Of a stretch of DNA of 64,000 nt, positions 55,402 to 64,000 are shown piece by piece. The position numbers and the translations under genes were made by a program. The first letter of the stretch is position 1. Every line of letters begins with the position of its first letter. This stretch comes from Elusimicrobiota bacterium (GTDB taxonomy: Bacteria; Elusimicrobiota; Elusimicrobia; FEN-1173; JAKLIF01), in contig JAKLIF010000001.1 in assembly GCA_022709755.1 (NCBI GenBank), forward strand, positions 318,661-382,660, read 5' to 3'. A model generated the notes under the pieces. The model was not told where the DNA came from. It saw only the letters and a program-made list of their open reading frames with translations, and did not search any database.

Positions 55402-56613
55402 TCAGTATTCTTCTCCGACCTTCGGGGGGGCGTATTCCGTGTCGACATCGACGGGGTAGGAGTATTCGCTGTTCCACATGTTGTCAAAAAACGATTGGGC
55501 CTCCCGAGCGATGAGGCCATCTTCAACGACCACCCCGGCGTTCCGAGATTTGTAAAAATAATCTTTCTCCCAGTTATTGGAACCGATCCAGACGATCTTC
55601 CCATCCACGGTCATGTATTTGCAGTGCGACACCCTCGCGTGGGGGATGAATCCGGCCGAATATTCCGGAATGGTGCACATCTTCACTTCGATATTGGGAA
55701 AAAGAGAAAGGATCTTCAGGTCGTCGATCTTGGGAGGTTTCTTGCACCAATCCGAGCACAACAACCTCACCTTGACACCTCTTTTCGCCGCCCGCTGAAG
55801 GGCATCATCCAATTCTTTGAACCTGCCCTTGGTCGAATACGTCAAAACCTGCACGTTCACCTCCGAAACGGCCCCATCGATCAACCGCCTCAGAACGGGT
55901 TCGTCCCAGCCGTTGGCGTTGGGCAGATAACCCTTGGGACTGAACACCGGCGTCACCGGAACGACGCGGTCCCCCATATCCAGGGAGATGGTCGTCGGCA
56001 GAACGACGGTCTCTTCGGTGTAACCCATCCGGCCGAATGAGGCGGCTCGCCAATCACGCTCGAAAAGCCGCGTCATCTGGGCGGCCAACGCCTCGTTCTT
56101 GATCCGGATGCCGAGTTCCTGGATGTGCTTGATGGACCGCCAATCGAAGTTCTGGCTCCCGAGGAACACATCTTTCCCGTCGACGATGATATATTTGGCG
56201 TGCATGACCCCGCCACCGATCTCCTGGAAATTGATCTCCCGGTAATTGATGTTCTTGAGCAGTCCCAACGACGCCAGGGGTTCCGGATAGGTCTTGCGGA
56301 GAAGACTATCGATCAGCAACCGGACCTGCACCCCCCGTTCGGCAGCCGCGCGGATCCCGTCCAGGACCGCTTCAAGGGGTTCTCCGGGTTCCGACGTGAG
56401 ATAGAAGATGCCGATGTTCAGGGTCTGTGTCGCCGAAGCGATCATGTCGAGCCAGACCACGTCCGTATTGCGGATGTTCTCCAGATCCAGCGTCGTCTCC
56501 ACCGGCACGCTCTCGACCAACTCGATGAAAGCCGGTTCCTCGGCCCTCAAGGAGCGGGAAAAAACGACGCTCAGGAGGAGCGCCGGCAGTATTGTGATAT
56601 ATCTCCGAGTCAA
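55402..56613 (-). CDS. Secreted phospholipase D-family protein (two HKD motifs)
   Basis: Signal peptide MTRRYITILPALLLSVVFSRSLRA. HKD motifs HAKYIIVDGKDVFLGSQNFD and HCKYMTVDGKIVWIGSNNW. Confidence 0.85.
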   Translation of the reverse strand: MTRRYITILPALLLSVVFSRSLRAEEPAFIELVESVPVETTLDLENIRNTDVVWLDMIASATQTLNIGIFYLTSEPGEPLEAVLDGIRAAAERGVQVRLLIDSLLRKTYPEPLASLGLLKNINYREINFQEIGGGVMHAKYIIVDGKDVFLGSQNFDWRSIKHIQELGIRIKNEALAAQMTRLFERDWRAASFGRMGYTEETVVLPTTISLDMGDRVVPVTPVFSPKGYLPNANGWDEPVLRRLIDGAVSEVNVQVLTYSTKGRFKELDDALQRAAKRGVKVRLLCSDWCKKPPKIDDLKILSLFPNIEVKMCTIPEYSAGFIPHARVSHCKYMTVDGKIVWIGSNNWEKDYFYKSRNAGVVVEDGLIAREAQSFFDNMWNSEYSYPVDVDTEYAPPKVGEEY

Positions 56614-56623
56614 ATTTTTCCCC

Positions 56624-57061
56624 TCACGCGGAGAGCCGCTTCATCTTAAGGAAGGCGGGCCGTGCGAACAGCGCCTTCTGCCCGTGCAGTTGTTCGGAGA
56701 AACCGAACCGCTTGAAGATGTTCTCCCGATCCGTAATGGCAAGGACTTCATACACGCGCTTTTTCTTCGCCTCGCGCAGACATCGGTCCACAAGACCGCT
56801 CGCGATCCCGCGGCCGCGATACCTGTCATGGACCGCCAATGACCGGATCTCCGCCAATTTCCGGTTATAAGTCTCCAGTGCACAACAAGCCACCACGTCT
56901 TCATTCTCTTCCGCGACCCAGAAATGGTGGATCAGCCCTTTGATCTCGGCCTTGGATCGTTTCAGAATCTTCCCGCTTTTCTTCGCCAAGCGGATCAACT
57001 CATGGATGCGAGTCACGTCACGTTCCTGGGCCTTTCGAATAACGATCTTTCCGCTCATCAT
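56624..57061 (-). CDS. GNAT-family N-acetyltransferase
   Basis: Probable start MMSGKIVIRKAQERDVTRIHELI... Acetyl-CoA motif LAVHDRYRGRGIASGLV. ATGA overlap with the upstream gene. Confidence 0.75.
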   Translation of the reverse strand: MMSGKIVIRKAQERDVTRIHELIRLAKKSGKILKRSKAEIKGLIHHFWVAEENEDVVACCALETYNRKLAEIRSLAVHDRYRGRGIASGLVDRCLREAKKKRVYEVLAITDRENIFKRFGFSEQLHGQKALFARPAFLKMKRLSA

Positions 57062-57063
57062 GT

Positions 57064-58995
57064 CTATCGGGTCCCCCTTTCTATTTCGGACAATCTTTTC
57101 ACGTAATGAGATGACTGTTTCATAAAAGCGTCTTTCCTGGCGAGAGGCACATTCTTTTCCGGGGGCAGTTTTAAAGTCATGAAGTTCACATAACTCCCGT
57201 TCTTTCTCACGCGGAAATCCAGGTGGGGGCCCGTAGACCAACCCGTCGAGCCCACGTAACCGATGACCTGCCCCTGACGGACCTTGCTGCCTCGTTGGAG
57301 TCCTTTCGCATATCGGGACAGGTGGCCATAACAGGTGGTATAGGATGAGTTATGCCGGACCTCGATGTAGTTCCCGTAGGCCCCTTTCCTCCCCCGATAG
57401 ATGACTGTGCCGTCACCCACGCTCACAACGGGAGTGCCCGTCGGGGCCGCATAATCGATGGCCAGATGGGGACGGAAATAACGGAGGATGGGATGGAAGC
57501 GCCGACGGCTGAACCGGGACGTTATCCGGCGAAAAGCCAAGGGGGCTTTCAAGAAAGCCCGGCGGTGGGCTTCCCCTTTGGTGTCGTAATAATCGCCTTC
57601 GAAATGGATGCCGACCTGTTTTCCGGTCTGGCGGCCCTCGTAAGAAGCGGCCCGGATGCGCCGTTCCACGATCCGTCCGGTGGGTGTCAGATGGTCTTCC
57701 CACAAGAGAGCGAACCGGTCGCCCGCCCGGGGGTCCACGTTGAAATCGATCTCCCAGGCGAACACGTCGGCAAAAGCCGCGATCACGTCCGGGTCCACCC
57801 CTTGAGTCACCATGGAATTCCAGAGGGAATCGCTGAGCGTGCCGGCGGCCGTTTTTTCCTTGACCGTGAGATCCACCGGACGCGACTGGGCCATATAGGC
57901 GCCGGTCGTGGAGAGAGACACGATGAAATCTTTCACGCCCTGAGTGACGATGAACTCCAAGACTTCCCCCCCGGTGGACTGGATGATCCGGTAATGATCG
58001 TCGGCGCGGAGCCGCCGGAGGTTCAGAATGCGTGACAGTTCCCGGGTTAAGACGGCCTGCTCGTCCCTCTTCACCGAGACGCCGTCCATCACAGCCGCCA
58101 GCGTGCCCCCGCGGGCGAACGTGCCCGTGGTCACCACGATCTGGGACGAGTCGTAGCCTTCGAACTCGACGGCGGAGTCATCCCCCCGGAAAGACCGCCA
58201 GAGCCCGATCGCCGCCAACAAAACGACGAGGAGCGCCGCGGCCAGACCGATCTTGGCCTTCAAAGTCCAGAATCCGGGGGGAGTTTCAGGTCCGTTCATG
58301 TTTTTCAATATAGCATGCTTATTCCAATAACACCATCCCCGAGAAGCAACCATCACTTCCTGCTGGGCGCTACAGATCGTCTTCTCCGTGAACCCACCGG
58401 CATCCAAGAAACGGCGGACCTCACCCATCTGACGATGGAATGAATCATGGCTTTTTCCCTCCAAGCTATGACACCGATTGACCATCTCCATCCCTCTGTC
58501 TGTAAAATCACTCAAGATAATCTTGCCGTGATCCTTCAACACGCGGATCAACTCTTGAGCCACAGCCCGGGGATGTTCCAAGTGGTGGATCACATTCACA
58601 GACACCACGACATCAATCGATCCGGTCGGGAATGGCAGGCGTTCGGCGTCCGCCAGGATGAAATCGGCCCGATGGTCACACCCGTAATAGGCCAAGTTCA
58701 TCCGTGCGATGGATTGATCGACGGCATTCACATCCACGCTGGAAAAACGGTGCCCGTTCCGGGCCAGAGTGAGAGAAAAATGTCCCTTCCCGGTCCCGAT
58801 CTCGACGAGAACCCCACTCAACGGGAGGCATTGCCTGTAGATGAAATCCCGCTCCGCGATGAAATCACACCCGTTGCCGTCGTAAAATTCGAGCCGTTGG
58901 AGGAATGCCGCGTGGTTATCCGACACACCGGCGGCGAGAAACCGGGCCGGTGGAGCCGCCAACCACGGATGTTTTCGTTGAATTTCGGAAACCAC
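57064..58995 (-). CDS. Fusion protein: N-terminal class I SAM-dependent methyltransferase, central TM helix, C-terminal M23/LytM peptidase domain with an HxH->HxD variant
   Basis: MTase motifs VLVEIGTGKGHFSLTLARNG (motif I), IDVVVSVNVIHHLEHP (II), LKDHGKIILSDF (III). TM helix KIGLAAALLVVLLAAIGLW. M23 motifs HLAIDYAAPTGTPV (HxxxD) and GYVGSTGWSTGPHLDFRV (expected HLHF). A single uninterrupted 643-codon ORF. Confidence 0.7.
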   Translation of the reverse strand: MVSEIQRKHPWLAAPPARFLAAGVSDNHAAFLQRLEFYDGNGCDFIAERDFIYRQCLPLSGVLVEIGTGKGHFSLTLARNGHRFSSVDVNAVDQSIARMNLAYYGCDHRADFILADAERLPFPTGSIDVVVSVNVIHHLEHPRAVAQELIRVLKDHGKIILSDFTDRGMEMVNRCHSLEGKSHDSFHRQMGEVRRFLDAGGFTEKTICSAQQEVMVASRGWCYWNKHAILKNMNGPETPPGFWTLKAKIGLAAALLVVLLAAIGLWRSFRGDDSAVEFEGYDSSQIVVTTGTFARGGTLAAVMDGVSVKRDEQAVLTRELSRILNLRRLRADDHYRIIQSTGGEVLEFIVTQGVKDFIVSLSTTGAYMAQSRPVDLTVKEKTAAGTLSDSLWNSMVTQGVDPDVIAAFADVFAWEIDFNVDPRAGDRFALLWEDHLTPTGRIVERRIRAASYEGRQTGKQVGIHFEGDYYDTKGEAHRRAFLKAPLAFRRITSRFSRRRFHPILRYFRPHLAIDYAAPTGTPVVSVGDGTVIYRGRKGAYGNYIEVRHNSSYTTCYGHLSRYAKGLQRGSKVRQGQVIGYVGSTGWSTGPHLDFRVRKNGSYVNFMTLKLPPEKNVPLARKDAFMKQSSHYVKRLSEIERGTR

Positions 58996-59001
58996 GTTAT
59001 T

Positions 59002-59841
59002 TCAGAAGGAATAAACGGCGCCGGCGAGACCCTGAACACAGCGCGTGCCGAAACGTTCTTTTAAGAACGCCGTTCCGGAATCACCGGTACAGTGACAGGG
59101 GATGATTAACGACGGTGCAACCGCGTCGAGCGCCTGTGCCGCGACAGACAACTGTTCGTGAGACGCCCGGGACAAGTGCAACCCGCCGACGATCGCCTTG
59201 ACCGGGCTCTTATTCGTCAATTCCGAAATATATCCCAACGTGTTCTCCAGCCCAGAATGGGCGCAACCGGTCACGACCACTATCCCATCCGCCATGTCGA
59301 TCCACATCGCCTGGTCGTCGACGATGAGATCCGGCCGGATACCGGCTTCGTCCAGAAACAGGAAGGGATCCATCACATGGTGGGCCAAACGGCGCGGGAT
59401 GGGACCCGTCACCCACACGCCGGACCGAACCAGGACCGGCTCCCTGCACCAGACTACCTGCCCGGACGATCGATGAACGGCACCCCGCGACGCCGGCGGC
59501 ATCCCGATGGATCTCATCGATCCTCGCCGGGAACTGAAACGATCAATCAGCGCGTCCGGATGAAGATGAAGAGGAAGAACCCCACGCGTCTCCACCAGCC
59601 CCGCCAACCCTCCGGAATGATCCGAGTGCCCATGGCTGATGACAGCCTGGGACACCTTTTTCAGATCCAATCCCAGGCGAGGCGCATTGTTGACCAGGGC
59701 CGGACCCGCCCCTGTATCGAACAGGATGACGTCATCGTCCGCCTCGATCCAAAGGGACAATCCATGCTCTGTCCAGATCGCCCCAGAGACGGCATTATTG
59801 TCCGTCAGGACGCGGATGGTCAGATTCTTCACACCATCCAT
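59002..59841 (-). CDS. MBL-fold metallo-hydrolase
   Basis: HGHSDHSGG zinc-binding motif, ...DTGAGPALV..., ...VVTGCAHSG.... Start probably MDGVKNLTIRV (the longer ORF overlaps the NifX-like gene). Confidence 0.75.
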   Translation of the reverse strand: MDGVKNLTIRVLTDNNAVSGAIWTEHGLSLWIEADDDVILFDTGAGPALVNNAPRLGLDLKKVSQAVISHGHSDHSGGLAGLVETRGVLPLHLHPDALIDRFSSRRGSMRSIGMPPASRGAVHRSSGQVVWCREPVLVRSGVWVTGPIPRRLAHHVMDPFLFLDEAGIRPDLIVDDQAMWIDMADGIVVVTGCAHSGLENTLGYISELTNKSPVKAIVGGLHLSRASHEQLSVAAQALDAVAPSLIIPCHCTGDSGTAFLKERFGTRCVQGLAGAVYSF

Positions 59842-59863
59842 ATTGGCCTCTCTCCCCGAGTTC

Positions 59864-60226
59864 TCAATGGGAACATTCATGACCCTCCACGTGGTCACAA
59901 ACATTCAGCCCGGACTGGAGCGACCCGTTCAGGTAACACCGGACAATTTCCTCGGGAGTGTCCGACGGAGCGCCGAGAACCACTCGAATGGAATATTGAG
60001 CGAACAGTTCCTGGGCGTGACCGCCCATCCCCCCGGCAATAATCACATTCGCCCCCTGTTGAGCCAACCATGGCGGCAAGAGGCCCGGTTGGTGAGGAGG
60101 CGCCTTGATGTCGTCCCGCTTGAGTATCTTCTTCGCTGAAGTATCCACATCCAGGATTGCGAAAGATTCGCAATGCCCGAAATGGGCGGACAATTTTCCG
60201 GCAACGATAGGAATTGCTATTTTCAT
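59864..60226 (-). CDS. NifX/NafY/NifB-C-like (dinitrogenase Fe-Mo cofactor-binding domain) small protein
   Basis: MKIAIPIVAGKLSAHFGHCESFAILDVD...ANVIIAGGMGGHAQELFAQYSIRVV; 120 aa, typical of this domain family. Confidence 0.7.
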   Translation of the reverse strand: MKIAIPIVAGKLSAHFGHCESFAILDVDTSAKKILKRDDIKAPPHQPGLLPPWLAQQGANVIIAGGMGGHAQELFAQYSIRVVLGAPSDTPEEIVRCYLNGSLQSGLNVCDHVEGHECSH

Positions 60227-60321
60227 TGACTCCTCCTTTTGATTTCAAAACTCCCCTGCTCTAATGATACGTCCCCACAAACAAACCTTTTCTCTTTCCC
60301 TGACCGGGCCCGAGAGGACCC

Positions 60322-61590
60322 CTAAACGGACCCCCACATCTTTTTCAACGCGACCACCAGCGAATCGATGTCCGACCGATCGTTATAGACGTAGAAACTG
60401 ACCCGACAAGTGCCGGGAACCCCATAACGCGCCATCAACAATGGGGAACAGTGGTTTCCCACGCGAATGGCAATTCCTTCCCGATCCGCCATGGCACCGA
60501 CATCGCGGGAATCGACACCCTGGAGATTGAACGACACCACCCCTCCCCTGAGAGGGGTCTCGCTGACACCATACAACGAGATTCCGGGGACTTCGCCGAG
60601 AGCATGAAGCGCATACTGTGTCATCTCGATCTCATGCCGACGAACGTTCTCCATTCCTAAGGTCTCCAGATAATCGAGCGCCGCCCCAAAAGCCACGATG
60701 CCGGCGATGTTCGGTGTGCCCGCTTCGTATTTATGAGGAAGAACGTTCCAGGTCGCCCGGTCAGGCCATACATCCTTGATCATGTCCCCTCCGCCAAGGA
60801 ATGGAGGCATGGACTCCAATATCTCCCGCCGGCCCCACAGAACCCCAACACCCGTGGGTCCCAGCATCTTATGAGCCGAGAAGGAGAGAAAATCGCACCC
60901 GAGATCCTTCACATCCACCGGAAAGTGGGGCACCGACTGCGCTCCGTCCACCATGCAGAGCGCGCCGACGGCGTGAGCCCTCCGCGCGATTTCCCTGACC
61001 GGGTTGATCGTGCCGACAGCATTCGACATCTGAGTGACCGACACCAACCGCGTCCTCTCGGACAGCAACCGGTCGATATTCGACAGATCCAGCGTTTCCG
61101 TTTTAAGATCGACCGGGATAAAACGAAGCCGGGCCTCCGTTCTCTGGGCCAGGATCTGCCAGGGGATCAGATTGGCATTGTGTTCCATCTCGGAGATGAG
61201 GATCTCATGGCCCGGTTTCAGATTCGCAAGACCCCAGGCGTATGAAACCAGGTTGAACCCCTCCGTGGCGTTCCGAGTAAATATGATTTCGGCGGAATCG
61301 TCGACCCCGATGAAACGCGCCACCTTCCGCCGCGACGATTCCATCAGATCCGTGGCCGTCTTGGAAAGTTCATAGGGGCCCCGATGGACGTTCGCATAAC
61401 TCTCCCGATAAAAATCATCGGCCGCGCGAATGACACACGATGGTTTCTGCGTGGAAGAAGCGTTATCCAGATAGACCAACCGTTTTCCCTGGACCGGCCG
61501 GCCCAGGATGGGGAAATCACGGCGGACCGATTCAGTATCGATGGAGGGGGCTTCCCTCTCGGGGGCCGTCATCGCCGGGTCTCCGCGCAC
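60322..61590 (-). CDS. sufS: Cysteine desulfurase (SufS/class V aminotransferase family)
   Basis: ...YLDNASSTQKP...; PLP-Lys motif SFSAHKMLGPTGVGVL; active-site GNHCSPLL (Cys persulfide loop). 422 aa. Confidence 0.9.
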   Translation of the reverse strand: MRGDPAMTAPEREAPSIDTESVRRDFPILGRPVQGKRLVYLDNASSTQKPSCVIRAADDFYRESYANVHRGPYELSKTATDLMESSRRKVARFIGVDDSAEIIFTRNATEGFNLVSYAWGLANLKPGHEILISEMEHNANLIPWQILAQRTEARLRFIPVDLKTETLDLSNIDRLLSERTRLVSVTQMSNAVGTINPVREIARRAHAVGALCMVDGAQSVPHFPVDVKDLGCDFLSFSAHKMLGPTGVGVLWGRREILESMPPFLGGGDMIKDVWPDRATWNVLPHKYEAGTPNIAGIVAFGAALDYLETLGMENVRRHEIEMTQYALHALGEVPGISLYGVSETPLRGGVVSFNLQGVDSRDVGAMADREGIAIRVGNHCSPLLMARYGVPGTCRVSFYVYNDRSDIDSLVVALKKMWGSV

Positions 61591-62849
61591 AGACCCATCA
61601 CGTCCTGCGCGATTTTTCTGAACACTCGCGCGGTTTTCCCGTCGGAGCCGTTCGACACGAACGGGCGGCCCGCATCGCCCGATTCACCGATGGCAGGATC
61701 GACGGGGATGGATCCGAGGAACGGGACCTTCATATCGCGAGCCATCCTCTCTCCTCCCCCGACCTTGAACAAAGACGCCTCGCCCCCGCAATGGGGACAC
61801 ACATAACCGCTCATATTCTCGATCACCCCCAACACCGGCACGTTCAGTCTCCGGCAGAAGGTGACCGATTTTCGCACGTCCACCGTAGAGACACGCTGGG
61901 GGGTTGTGACGATCAACGCCCCGTCCACGTTCCCGATCAACTGGCAGACAGACAGCGGCTCATCTCCGGTCCCAGGGGGAGAATCCACGATCAGAAAATC
62001 GAGGTCTCCCCAAGCCGCGTCCGTCAGAAACTGCTTGATCGCTCCCATCTTTTTCGGGCCTCTCCAGATGACGGCTTCATCCGGATCGGGCAGAAAAAAT
62101 CCAATGGACAACACTTTGATCCCGCCCGACAATACCGGCACCAGTTCTCCCCCCTCAAAACGGACCGTCTTTCCGTCGAGACCCATCAATGTCGGCACGC
62201 TCGGCCCATGGATATCAGCGTCGATCAATCCGACTCTCTTCCCGGACTGCGCCAGGGCGACAGCCAGATTGACGGCCACCGTGCTCTTTCCCACCCCGCC
62301 CTTTCCAGACAAGACGACGATCTTACGGCCGATCCGGTCCAGTCGGGCCTGCACCCGGCAACGATCCCTGAAATCCTCTTCACTTTCACCAGGCCGCCGG
62401 GAGCCGGCCCCATCTCCGGTCCGTTTCTCGGGATCCCTTCCATCCGTCTCCCCGTTTCGTCGGTAATCCTCGCAGGCCGCCTTCAAGGTGTCGGACGCCA
62501 GGAGCGCGCAATGTTCGGAATCCTGTGGCAAACCGCCGAGGGCTTCCAAAATATCGCGCTGACTGACTTGGGCCGCCGCCGGAATCATTTTCCCTTCTGC
62601 CAAACACGTGGCCATGCTCCCGCTGGCATAAGAGGGCCCGCATCCCGTGGTGGTGAAGTGGGCCTGCATCACTTTCTGATCCTCGCAGAACAGCCACATT
62701 TCCATGGTGTCCCCGCACGGCCCCGTGATCTTCGCATGACCGTTATAGTTCTTCAGCCTCCCGTTGTTCCGCGGGTTCTGAACATGGTCCATCAACGTCT
62801 TCGACACCTTGAATGTATCCATCATCTCCTCCTTGGAAAAATCACCCAC
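61569..62849 (-). CDS. Fusion of an IscU/NifU-like Fe-S scaffold domain (N-terminal) with an Mrp/ApbC/NBP35-type P-loop Fe-S carrier ATPase
   Basis: N-terminal: GPCGDTMEMWL...TGCGPSYASGSMATCLAEG...DSEHCALLASDTLKAA (three scaffold Cys). C-terminal: VLSGKGGVGKSTVAVNLA (deviant Walker A) and CPHCG (CxxC). Confidence 0.8.
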   Translation of the reverse strand: MGDFSKEEMMDTFKVSKTLMDHVQNPRNNGRLKNYNGHAKITGPCGDTMEMWLFCEDQKVMQAHFTTTGCGPSYASGSMATCLAEGKMIPAAAQVSQRDILEALGGLPQDSEHCALLASDTLKAACEDYRRNGETDGRDPEKRTGDGAGSRRPGESEEDFRDRCRVQARLDRIGRKIVVLSGKGGVGKSTVAVNLAVALAQSGKRVGLIDADIHGPSVPTLMGLDGKTVRFEGGELVPVLSGGIKVLSIGFFLPDPDEAVIWRGPKKMGAIKQFLTDAAWGDLDFLIVDSPPGTGDEPLSVCQLIGNVDGALIVTTPQRVSTVDVRKSVTFCRRLNVPVLGVIENMSGYVCPHCGGEASLFKVGGGERMARDMKVPFLGSIPVDPAIGESGDAGRPFVSNGSDGKTARVFRKIAQDVMGLCAETRR

Positions 62850-62887
62850 TCGCCCACAGACCTCAGGACCTCTCCTCCCGAATATGT

Positions 62888-63208
62888 CTAGAAGGAAACG
62901 ACCTTATCATGCGTCTTTATGATGTCGTATAAATCCTTCATCGTCGAAAGAGGACAAATCTCGGTGCCCGGCATATTGCGGAACTTCAGGCAGGTCCCGC
63001 AAGCCAATATTTTTCCTCCATTCCGATGGAATTCCATCATTTGTCCCTTGATGTCATATTTATCCGTGCCGATGTTCTCGCATTCCACTCCCTTGGCCAC
63101 AAGGAAAACAGAGACCTCATCACCCTGATTCTTTGAGAAGTTTGACAGACGAAGAGCATTCCAAACCGCCTCCGCATCCGCCGAATATAAAATAATCCCT
63201 AATTTCAT
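62888..63208 (-). CDS. DsrE/DsrF-like sulfur-relay family small protein
   Basis: 106 aa; MKLGIILYSAD...KILACGTCL (conserved Cys); size and motif fit the DsrE/DsrF-like family. Confidence 0.6.
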   Translation of the reverse strand: MKLGIILYSADAEAVWNALRLSNFSKNQGDEVSVFLVAKGVECENIGTDKYDIKGQMMEFHRNGGKILACGTCLKFRNMPGTEICPLSTMKDLYDIIKTHDKVVSF

Positions 63209-63223
63209 GTGACACCTCCCCTT

Positions 63224-64000
63224 TTATAATTCAAGATTCTTCCAGAGATTCCGAATATCGGCGGCGGCAGGGGATTCCCTTTCAACGACAGACCTCCCCT
63301 CTCTCTGGGCCTGAGTAACGGACCGATCATATCTCACCCGACCCACCGGATGGACGTCCAAAGATCTGGCCCTTTCCTCCAAACGTTCCGTCAGAGAAGG
63401 ATTCAGATCCCATCGATTCACGCATATCATCGAACCAATCCCGAAATGAGCGGTCAGGTTGGCGGCCCTCTCGAAATCATGCAATCCGGATACGGTCGGT
63501 TCGGCGACAAAAAGAGCGCCAGAAACCCCTCCCAAAGACGCTATCACAGGACATCCGATCCCCGGAGGACCATCCACAAGGACCAGATCCAAATTCCGCT
63601 CTTTGGCAATCCGGCGAGCTTCTCTCTTGACTAAACCGACGAGTTTCCCAGAATTTTCACCGGACGGGGCAAGCCGGGCATGAACCAACGGCCCGGCGCG
63701 GGTCTCGAATTCGAACCATTCTCCCGTCAAGCGTTCCTGAAGTTTGACGGCCTTCGAGGGGCAAACCTCATAGCAAAAGCCACATCCCTCACACGCCAAC
63801 GGATCCACTTTGTATTTGGGACGAGGTCGGTCTCCCTCCCGATGAACAGCCCCGAAACGGCAAACAGATTCACACCTCCCGCAACCAACGCACAAATCGT
63901 CCGTTACACATGCGATCTCTCCGGAATAGAATGATTCCCTCCTCCTGACCGATACGTCGAATAAAAGGGGCAGATTGGAACCATCCACGTCGGTATCCGC
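63224..64000 (-). CDS. MinD/ParA-superfamily P-loop ATPase with inserted 2x[4Fe-4S] ferredoxin domain (CooC-like), N-terminus beyond window end
   Basis: CVGCGRCESVCRFGAV...CEGCGFCYEVCP (two CxxCxxCxxxCP motifs), then ...LVLVDGPPGIGCPVIAS.... No Walker A seen, so the true start lies beyond 64000. Confidence 0.75.
   Translation of the reverse strand, partial: ADTDVDGSNLPLLFDVSVRRRESFYSGEIACVTDDLCVGCGRCESVCRFGAVHREGDRPRPKYKVDPLACEGCGFCYEVCPSKAVKLQERLTGEWFEFETRAGPLVHARLAPSGENSGKLVGLVKREARRIAKERNLDLVLVDGPPGIGCPVIASLGGVSGALFVAEPTVSGLHDFERAANLTAHFGIGSMICVNRWDLNPSLTERLEERARSLDVHPVGRVRYDRSVTQAQREGRSVVERESPAAADIRNLWKNLEL

Follow-up and report, generated by a model that had tools for sequence, protein, structure and literature searches.

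The locus described here lies within a window of 64,000 nucleotides from an Elusimicrobiota bacterium, where a single open reading frame on the reverse strand encodes, in this order, a class I SAM-dependent methyltransferase, a membrane anchor and an M23 (LytM-type) peptidase (Table 1). The original prediction had described one 643-codon frame, and the ORF listing bears this out, with all of the quoted motif strings located inside it: VLVEIGTGKGHF (residues 62 to 73), VVVSVNVIHHL (129 to 139), DHGKIILSDF (155 to 164), LAAALLVVLLAAIGLW (251 to 266) and PHLDF (590 to 594). HLAID (510 to 514) and YGHLS (556 to 560) are likewise found. Frame and domains are far beyond chance, and a protein identical to the translated frame is on record from an Elusimicrobiota MAG (NCBI HOW27160.1). 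An SD-like sequence, AAAGGGGGA, is located inside the tail of the frame, 5' of the GNAT acetyltransferase gene.

Table 1. Positions in the window of the fused frame, its parts and its direct neighbors
Feature	Coordinates	Strand	Basis or remark
MBL-fold gene, upstream	59002..59880	-	In-frame TGA stop 6 nt before fused ORF start; syntenic partner of the methyltransferase
Fused ORF	57064..58995	-	643 codons, uninterrupted; GTG start, TAG stop; ORF listing
Class I SAM-dependent methyltransferase module, residues 1-216	58348..58995	-	Pfam, homologs, AF2
Linker, codons 217-232 (ASRGWCYWNKHAILKN)	58300..58347	-	Intergenic-like; composition and homolog ends
Internal ATG, M233	58297..58299	-	Probable original peptidase start; N termini of relatives
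Single transmembrane signal-anchor helix, about residues 247-267	58195..58257	-	Hydropathy, AF2, homology
Periplasmic domain 1, about residues 284-379	57859..58146	-	Equivalent of the auto-inhibitory N-terminal domain of Csd3/ShyA/NMB0315
Csd3_N2 domain, residues 380-495	57511..57858	-	PF19425, 29 bits against a cutoff of 27
LytM/Peptidase_M23 catalytic domain, residues 509-604	57184..57471	-	PF01551
H510-x3-D514	57454..57468	-
H558	57322..57324	-
H591-L-D593-F-R595	57211..57225	-	Clade signature in place of canonical H-L-H-[FY]-[EQG]
GNAT acetyltransferase gene, downstream	56624..57061	-	Start 2 nt past fused ORF stop

The methyltransferase half

Pfam searches confirmed both of the domain calls made earlier, and the methyltransferase region passed the profile check proposed for it, with Methyltransf_11 matching residues 64 to 161 (E = 1.4e-19; 70.9 bits against a cutoff of 21.2) and Methyltransf_25, Methyltransf_23 and Methyltransf_31 matching as well. 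Motif I reads E65-x-G67-T-G69-K-G71, with D88 as the acidic residue; E65, G67, G69, G71 and D88 are invariant in the alignment with stand-alone methyltransferase homologs. Fifteen such homologs (P0025 to P0039; approximately 200 amino acids [aa], 37 to 66% identity across the whole domain) share 26 invariant columns, all of which are present in the fused protein, and the family-invariant residues H72, N134, H137, H138, H176, E179, G180 and H183 are all kept. With a seven-strand Rossmann-like fold (AF2 model, pLDDT of 87.9; final strand at residues 212 to 218) in addition to profile, motif I and acidic residue, the module has the features of a class I SAM-dependent methyltransferase. Foldseek matched it to many methyltransferases with a probability of 1.0, all of them generic small-molecule methyltransferases that do not pin down the substrate. 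All of the named equivalog models considered (UbiE/UbiG, BioC, ArsM and DVU_1556) scored far below their curated cutoffs (BioC, 49 bits against 185); the nearest of them, that of the DVU_1556 family methyltransferase, reached 52 bits against a cutoff of 155, so the fused protein is not a member of that family.

The loci of the methyltransferase relatives are Nitro_FeMo-Co/CbiA-Fer4/NifU/MBL clusters, like the cluster located upstream in the window, and the pairing of an MBL-fold gene with the methyltransferase gene recurs at the locus of the closest relative. The methyltransferase belongs with this upstream MBL/Nitro_FeMo-Co/Fe-S cluster. While the stand-alone genes share that MBL/Nitro_FeMo-Co neighborhood, they end at positions corresponding to residues 219 to 223 of the fused protein, whereas the fused gene reads on into the next gene; in the closest relatives, the methyltransferase gene is followed by a Thi4-like gene rather than by a peptidase gene.

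The peptidase half and its HLD motif

A single transmembrane helix had been proposed, and only one segment (windows 241 to 270) indeed exceeds a Kyte-Doolittle value of 1.6 over 19 residues. This anchor is helical in both AlphaFold models (residues 245 to 262 and 245 to 269) and corresponds by homology to the anchor at the N terminus of stand-alone peptidase relatives; we also consider the N-in topology implied at the time to be correct. Residues 284 to 604 make up a three-domain M23 endopeptidase of the MepM/ShyA/Csd3 type. The Peptidase_M23 match is strong (E = 5.7e-32; 110.2 bits against a cutoff of 28.7), phmmer matches to 6muk, 3slu, 4rny and 6ue4 extend over all domains (those to 6muk and 3slu begin at residue 296 of the full protein), and Foldseek aligned approximately 350 columns to ShyA, NMB0315 and Csd3, the best match being the open form of ShyA (E = 1e-27; 352 columns). 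The nearest relatives of this half (59 to 62% identity; 422 to 435 aa) are stand-alone proteins that start near M233 and have a porin gene, a PAS kinase gene or, on the 5' side, a glnA-like gene as neighbors; no methyltransferase gene was found adjoining them. All family-invariant residues are retained in each half of the fusion. A combined alignment of the two halves misplaced most of the methyltransferase homologs and was left unused, and the halves were modeled separately.

Among known systems, the M23B peptidoglycan DD-endopeptidases MepM (YebA) of Escherichia coli and ShyA and ShyC of Vibrio cholerae share with the fused protein the anchor, domain 1, the Csd3_N2-type domain 2 and the C-terminal LytM domain. 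The best NCBIfam matches, to ShyC (217.8 bits), ShyA (164.9 bits) and MepM (145.5 bits), nevertheless stay far below the respective equivalog cutoffs (700, 700 and 341), so the protein is a relative of these enzymes and not an orthologue. It differs from them in carrying an aspartate in place of the second histidine of HxH, with an arginine at +2, and in the 232 residues of methyltransferase plus linker that precede the anchor. A second group, the three-domain latent endopeptidases Csd3 (HdpA) of Helicobacter pylori and NMB0315 and NGO1686 (Mpg) of Neisseria, aligns over all three periplasmic domains (phmmer, E = 1e-40 to 1e-43) and shares H-x3-D, the third histidine and the first histidine of HxH. 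These proteins hold zinc through His-Asp-His (His259, Asp263 and His341 in Csd3) and have no cytoplasmic domain, whereas the fused protein has D593 at the third position.

Judged as an M23 peptidase, the LytM domain has the family profile, H-x3-D (H510-L-A-I-D514) and the additional catalytic histidine (H558, in YGHLS) expected approximately 30 residues before HxH (LytM H260). HxH itself reads H591-L-D593: the first, catalytic histidine is present, and D593 aligns to the second in NGO1686, NMB0315 and Csd3, where that histidine is a zinc ligand (PMC4356371, PMC9662197). The exchange of histidine for aspartate at a zinc-ligand position, as originally reported, is therefore real, but it is no oddity of this protein, given that 129 of 171 relatives, from many phyla, carry aspartate there. 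Position +2 is arginine in 123 of these 129 and is E, G or Q in the histidine class. H510, D514 and H558 are invariant in the 171 relatives, with the exception, within the HLD class, of one protein without H510 (128/129); D514, H558 and H591 are found in all 129 members of that class.

It had also been suggested that the domain might be noncatalytic and EnvC/NlpD-like. On this reading, HLD would be the mark of an inactive LytM domain that, as in EnvC, NlpD and Csd2, has a regulatory role and activates other hydrolases. Such degenerate domains are well known (PMC9662197), and the canonical zinc-ligand histidine is missing here, so that the LytM fold and the departure from the canonical zinc motif are common to both. 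In EnvC, NlpD and Csd2, however, most of the ligand and catalytic residues are gone and the domains are arranged differently, whereas the fused protein deviates at one position, at which it carries an aspartate conserved across a large clade. Of the five residues that serve in catalysis or as ligands, the active-site alignment showed four to be kept, and these are invariant in the 129 HLD-class relatives (again but for H510 in one of them), as is D593, with its covarying arginine. In addition, the protein is built like the MepM/ShyA enzymes rather than like EnvC, a coiled-coil protein, or NlpD, a LysM lipoprotein; the NlpD model of NCBIfam scored 40.6 bits against a cutoff of 311, and no EnvC model was among the best NCBIfam hits. 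We therefore regard a dead domain as improbable; the invariance of the other catalytic residues and the covariation at +2 argue, at the level of sequence, for an active enzyme. Aspartate is a competent zinc ligand. We know of no characterized enzyme that carries HxD, and nothing relevant emerged from literature searches on the HLD motif or on fusions of M23 peptidases with methyltransferases.

The junction and the distribution of the fusion

The linker has a GC content of 0.40, and its third codon positions are G or C in 6 of 16 codons (0.375), compared to 0.71 in the rest of the frame (binomial tail, 0.0055); the region with the lowest GC3 of the entire ORF falls here. Stand-alone methyltransferase homologs terminate at query positions 219 to 223 (P0025 at approximately 230), the N termini of stand-alone peptidase relatives project onto positions 222 to 242, and the AF2 pLDDT is 46 to 61 across residues 221 to 244. 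Seven of the 16 linker codons (W221, C222, Y223, W224, K226, L230 and K231) are one substitution away from a stop codon, both alternative frames meet stops inside the linker, and a run of four guanines is present at 58337-58340. No clear SD-like sequence was found 5' of M233; SD usage is mixed across the window, with many genes lacking such a sequence, so its absence before M233, or before the GTG start of the fused frame, is uninformative. A promoter and terminator scan yielded nothing in the linker, with counts near those of shuffled sequences. Composition and homolog ends give the junction the look of an intergenic spacer that is now read through, up to the original ATG of the peptidase gene.

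The proposed search for further fusions of a methyltransferase to an M23 peptidase recovered this protein and no other: no further word-sharing hit from 5.8 billion proteins carries both Pfam families, and, in a search of 1.84 billion representatives, none of the remaining proteins in the top 150 of 121,481 hits covers both halves. Its 90% cluster contains only copies of the same sequence that differ in the annotated start, and a 632-aa variant read from the window is not on record. The ENA, Logan and JGI loci are DNA identical over 11 to 22 kb, and the same DNA was obtained with several pipelines (SPAdes, MEGAHIT, Logan and JGI). Since all assemblies with the fusion are DNA identical, they represent one clonal, uncultured population; neither the 90% cluster nor the JGI locus provided an independent strain that carries it. 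No close strain with two separate genes was found either, so the ancestral state of the locus is one that we infer rather than observe. In no relative were a methyltransferase gene and an M23 gene found to be adjacent, and, with a Thi4-like gene following the closest methyltransferase relatives, the adjacency itself also appears to be lineage specific. A scan of GTDB genomes pointed to a second candidate, L019 (match over residues 62 to 637), which we rejected, as it consists of an M23 gene, arsR and an ArsM-like methyltransferase gene, in the opposite order. The architecture, rightly called uncharacterized before, did not recur in independent lineages in these searches, as that of an evolved multidomain family would.

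Origin and significance of the fusion

We consider it probable that the frame arose by a recent, lineage-specific, in-frame fusion of two adjacent, functionally unrelated genes, through stop loss or an indel and without evolved coupling. The first gene would have encoded a cytoplasmic class I SAM methyltransferase of approximately 220 aa, from an uncharacterized and normally stand-alone family found in FUR/DUF5320/Nitro_FeMo-Co/MinD-type 4Fe-4S ATPase/NifU/MBL clusters, of which it would here be the last gene. The second would have encoded a bitopic peptidoglycan endopeptidase of the MepM/ShyA/Csd3 type, with a short cytoplasmic N terminus, the signal-anchor helix, inhibitory domain 1, Csd3_N2 and LytM. 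The methyltransferase stop may have been lost by substitution at one of the near-stop codons 221 to 224; alternatively, an indel may be responsible, the G4 run at codons 219 and 220 being one candidate site. Read-through would then cross the old, AT-rich 16-codon spacer into the peptidase ATG (M233). As the N terminus of MepM-type proteins is already cytoplasmic, the extra 232 residues would stay there, making the fusion topologically harmless. The halves would presumably work independently, the methyltransferase being tethered to the membrane and the peptidase cleaving peptidoglycan cross-links in the periplasm, with a predicted metal site of H510, D514 and D593, catalysis by H558 and H591, and R595 as a putative second-shell partner of D593.

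The fusion could instead be a sequencing or consensus artifact, or a minority allele, with a stop or a one-base difference, such as one in the G4 run, splitting the frame into a methyltransferase gene (approximately 222 to 230 aa) and a peptidase gene (approximately 411 aa from M233). The sequence is known from one population, through DNA-identical assemblies that probably share their reads or draw on sister read sets, and the coverage of the SPAdes contig is just approximately 7.6x; moreover, seven of the 16 linker codons are close to a stop, and, with both alternative frames ending in the linker, one indel would suffice to separate the genes again. On the other hand, at least four pipelines made identical base calls, contigs of 70 to 388 kb pass through the site, and the halves already share a frame, so that no frameshift is needed to join them. 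Illumina consensus errors are rare at runs of four bases. On balance, we find an artifact unlikely. Very unlikely, in our view, is a selected bifunctional membrane protein in which the cytoplasmic methyltransferase is coupled to the periplasmic endopeptidase, for example by regulating or localizing the hydrolase, or in which wall remodeling could be tied to the upstream metal-cofactor cluster. The open frame, the retention of all family-invariant residues in both halves, the compatible topology and the tight, operon-like array (the upstream gene stops 6 nt before the frame, and the downstream gene starts 2 nt after it) would fit such a protein. However, there is no second case among billions of proteins, the relatives of the halves never co-occur (the genes at L019 being separate), and the linker has an intergenic composition, low predicted order and the retained original ATG. 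That the fusion is an evolved architecture, as was implied at first, is thus not supported, in view of its confinement to one clonal population, the unrelated neighborhoods of the halves' relatives and the spacer-like junction. It is highly improbable that the 643-aa product is made and functions as a unit, with the tethered methyltransferase controlling or coupled to an endopeptidase with a His-Asp-Asp metal site; if it did, it would represent a new link from cytoplasmic metabolism to cell wall cleavage.

If two neighboring genes were indeed joined by chance, the fusion itself carries little weight and would be a textbook case of a lost stop codon, illustrating that a novel architecture seen in a single genome should be checked for recurrence before being counted as biology. 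A more useful by-product is the large, cross-phylum clade of MepM-like proteins with H-L-D-[FY]-R instead of H-L-H-[FY]-E, which includes members from Bacteroidales, Chitinophagales, Desulfobacterota, Acidobacteriota, some Gammaproteobacteria and Elusimicrobiota. Cultured bacteria such as Parabacteroides distasonis and Chitinophaga pinensis are among the carriers of HLD-class proteins. HxH has been used to define the M23 family in a review of that family. Should the aspartate be the third metal ligand, then this definition, and motif filters, would miss many probably active enzymes, and the metal affinity or regulation of the HLD enzymes may differ.

Domains of the fused ORF and their relatives

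The uninterrupted 643-codon ORF of the original prediction was borne out; it opens with GTG, 6 nt past the in-frame TGA of the upstream MBL-fold gene, and all sequence strings quoted from it were located (residues 62 to 73, 129 to 139, 155 to 164, 251 to 266, and 590 to 594). Its class I methyltransferase did not fail a profile search (Pfam Methyltransf_11, residues 64 to 161; E = 1.4e-19) and was further confirmed by the confident AF2 fold of residues 1 to 218, a seven-strand class I methyltransferase (pLDDT 87.9) with its final strand at 212 to 218. The proposed single TM helix coincides with the sole segment of membrane-helix hydrophobicity (windows 241 to 270), helical in both AlphaFold models, and the LytM/M23 domain with Peptidase_M23 (residues 509 to 604; E = 5.7e-32), which contains the PHLDF string at 590 to 594 and follows Csd3_N2 (residues 380 to 495).

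Structural neighbors of the methyltransferase half were generic small-molecule methyltransferases, and none of the named methyltransferase equivalogs in NCBIfam was reached. Its sequence relatives (37 to 66% identity, 178 to 245 aa) are all stand-alone and have 26 invariant residues in common with the query, including GTGKGH, NxxHHL, and a CHxxEGxxH stretch. In all contexts examined, their genes lie within clusters of FUR, DUF5320, two Nitro_FeMo-Co, MinD-type 4Fe-4S ATPase, NifU, ARMT1-like, and MBL-fold genes. Since the same MBL-fold gene precedes both the closest relative and the window's methyltransferase, and since the window holds a matching cluster, the methyltransferase belongs with its upstream neighbors and not with the peptidase. 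These relatives (P0025 to P0039; loci L009 to L012 and L096 to L098) form an uncharacterized family of proteins some 200 aa long in which His/Cys-rich positions are invariant, and the strongly conserved neighborhood of their genes (Nitro_FeMo-Co, 4Fe-4S ATPases, NifU, MBL) hints at a function involving a metal or Fe-S cofactor.

For the peptidase half, the top NCBIfam models were ShyC, ShyA, and MepM, every score being far under the equivalog cutoff. A phmmer search against PDB returned NGO1686, NMB0315, Csd3, ShyA, and VC0503, with matches (E = 1e-36 to 1e-43) that extend through all three periplasmic domains, and a structure search with the AF2 model (pLDDT 81) recovered these entries again in alignments of about 350 columns, the open form of ShyA first. 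Residues 233 to 643 are therefore a normal bitopic endopeptidase of the MepM/ShyA/Csd3 type, with the usual layout of short cytoplasmic N terminus, anchor helix, domain 1, domain 2, and LytM domain. The closest relatives (59 to 62% identity, 422 to 435 aa) are stand-alone genes in unrelated contexts. Four other MepM-like relatives, P0104 (951 aa) and P0137, P0144, and P0160 (548 to 593 aa), carry N-terminal extensions of 180 to 600 residues ahead of the three-domain module, none of which matched the ORF's methyltransferase.

Features of the fused ORF and its surroundings (window coordinates)
Feature	Position	Strand	Remarks
Upstream cluster	59002-64000	-	L001 1-9994; ZnuA/ABC-3 transporter, then DUF134, Nitro_FeMo-Co, two CbiA/Fer4, DsrE, NifU-Mrp, NifS, Nitro_FeMo-Co, MBL
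NifU_N-Mrp/ParA fusion	61569..62849	-	Upstream cluster
NifS-like cysteine desulfurase	60322..61590	-	Upstream cluster
Nitro_FeMo-Co	59864..60226	-	Resembles MrpORP C terminus
Fused ORF	57064..58995	-	
Methyltransferase half	58348-58995	-	
HLD motif	57211-57225	-	
Codons 623-643	57064-57130	-	
GNAT acetyltransferase, 145 aa	56624..57061	-	PRK07757-like; weak ArsN2 similarity
205-aa ORF, rejected	56624-57241	-	Mechanical listing overlapping 3' end of peptidase gene; replaced by the 145-aa GNAT gene
Phospholipase D-family protein	55402-56613	-	Two HKD, hydrophobic N terminus; best models (DISARM DrmC, NucT, cardiolipin synthase) all below cutoff

Junction and origin of the fusion

Stand-alone methyltransferases stop at query positions 219 to 223 (one at about 230), and the N termini of the peptidase relatives project to positions 222 to 242, around the in-frame ATG of M233. 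The halves are joined by a 16-codon linker, ASRGWCYWNKHAILKN, where GC content is 0.40 and GC3 is lower than in any other window of the ORF (6/16, versus 0.71 in the rest; binomial tail, 0.0055). Seven linker codons are one substitution away from a stop, a G4 run is present, stops in both other frames close the linker, and AF2 models it with low confidence; together with the relatives' termini, these features bear the mark of a spacer that once lay between two genes and is now translated. Promoter and terminator scans of the linker and a Shine-Dalgarno (SD) scan gave no informative signal.

Among word-sharing candidates from 5.8 billion proteins, both domains occurred only in the identical HOW27160.1, from an Elusimicrobiota MAG, so the architecture search yielded no second case; when 1.84 billion representatives were searched exhaustively with phmmer, the sole protein among the best 150 to span both halves was the same fusion. 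Its 90% cluster comprises four entries of one sequence with differing start calls. Over 11 to 22 kb, the loci from ENA (SPAdes, MEGAHIT), Logan, and JGI share one and the same DNA sequence: all assemblies with the fusion represent one clonal population, and the agreement of several pipelines excludes an assembler artifact.

Loss of the methyltransferase stop would have let translation run through the spacer into the peptidase gene. The full polypeptide, if made, would keep the methyltransferase in the cytoplasm, cross the membrane by the single helix at about 247 to 267, and expose the three peptidase domains to the periplasm, in agreement with the topology first proposed. Since MepM-type proteins start in the cytoplasm anyway, the fusion would be topologically neutral. 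Every family-invariant residue is kept in both halves, so neither is decaying.

It would take only one altered base, in the G4 run or in a near-stop codon, to give two genes again, and a consensus error or minority allele in a genome that really has two separate genes is a conceivable, if unlikely, explanation. That the fusion is a selected bifunctional protein seems very improbable: no sign of functional coupling was seen, and the two families were not found together elsewhere. The one apparent co-occurrence, L019 (2998-5498) of a Melioribacteraceae MAG, was rejected as a second fusion; joining of loci had given one match to query residues 62 to 637, but an HLD-class M23 gene is followed there by arsR and then by a separate ArsM-like methyltransferase gene. 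On the best reading, two neighboring genes were joined once, and recently, through loss of a stop, and the fusion in itself holds little general interest.

The HLD motif

In contrast, the HLD motif merits attention in its own right, not as a property of the fused ORF. In solved relatives (NGO1686, NMB0315, Csd3), the residue aligned to D593 is the second His of HxH, a zinc ligand in M23 enzymes, in which catalytic roles fall to the first His of this motif and to another His about 30 residues before it (PMC9662197, PMC4356371). Of the active-site residues, H510, D514, H558, and H591 are kept, and only the second His of HxH is replaced. Among 171 relatives (50%-identity cluster representatives plus word-index matches), this position is Asp in 129, His in 33, and Cys in 5, hardly an oddity of one ORF. 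The Asp class retains H510 in 128/129 and D514, H558, and H591 in 129/129, with Arg at +2 from the Asp in 123/129; the His class has Glu, Gly, or Gln there. In these 129 of the 171 MepM-like relatives (from P0002 to P0190; loci L015 to L094), H-L-D-[FY]-R stands in place of H-L-H-[FY]-[EQG], a replacement of which the M23 review makes no mention; nor was any mention of the HLD variant found in the literature searched.

The original prediction had allowed for a noncatalytic, EnvC/NlpD-like domain. Although the substitution falls on a zinc ligand, a catalytically dead LytM domain is quite unlikely, given that in the 129 Asp-class relatives the Asp is strictly conserved, the Arg covaries, and the other catalytic residues are invariant. 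Such conservation is to be expected of an active enzyme whose third ligand has changed, and not of a degenerate domain of the EnvC/NlpD type; we infer that D593 is a metal ligand. TGPHL[DC][FY]R, scanned in one genome per GTDB species, gave at least 600 matches; those listed include Bacteroidales (Parabacteroides distasonis among them), Chitinophaga, Pontibacter, Desulfacinum, Acidobacteriota, Nitrospirota, and several Gammaproteobacteria, with Parabacteroides, Chitinophaga, and Desulfacinum as cultured taxa. HLD is a clade-wide trait, not one peculiar to the fused ORF.

The ORF's C-terminal tail (codons 623 to 643) is the second part of the ORF where AT is high and GC3 low (GC falling to 0.31 over 48 nt); it is little conserved among relatives and also serves as the ribosome-binding region of the GNAT gene, which starts 2 nt past the peptidase stop and is preceded by the SD-like AAAGGGGGA.
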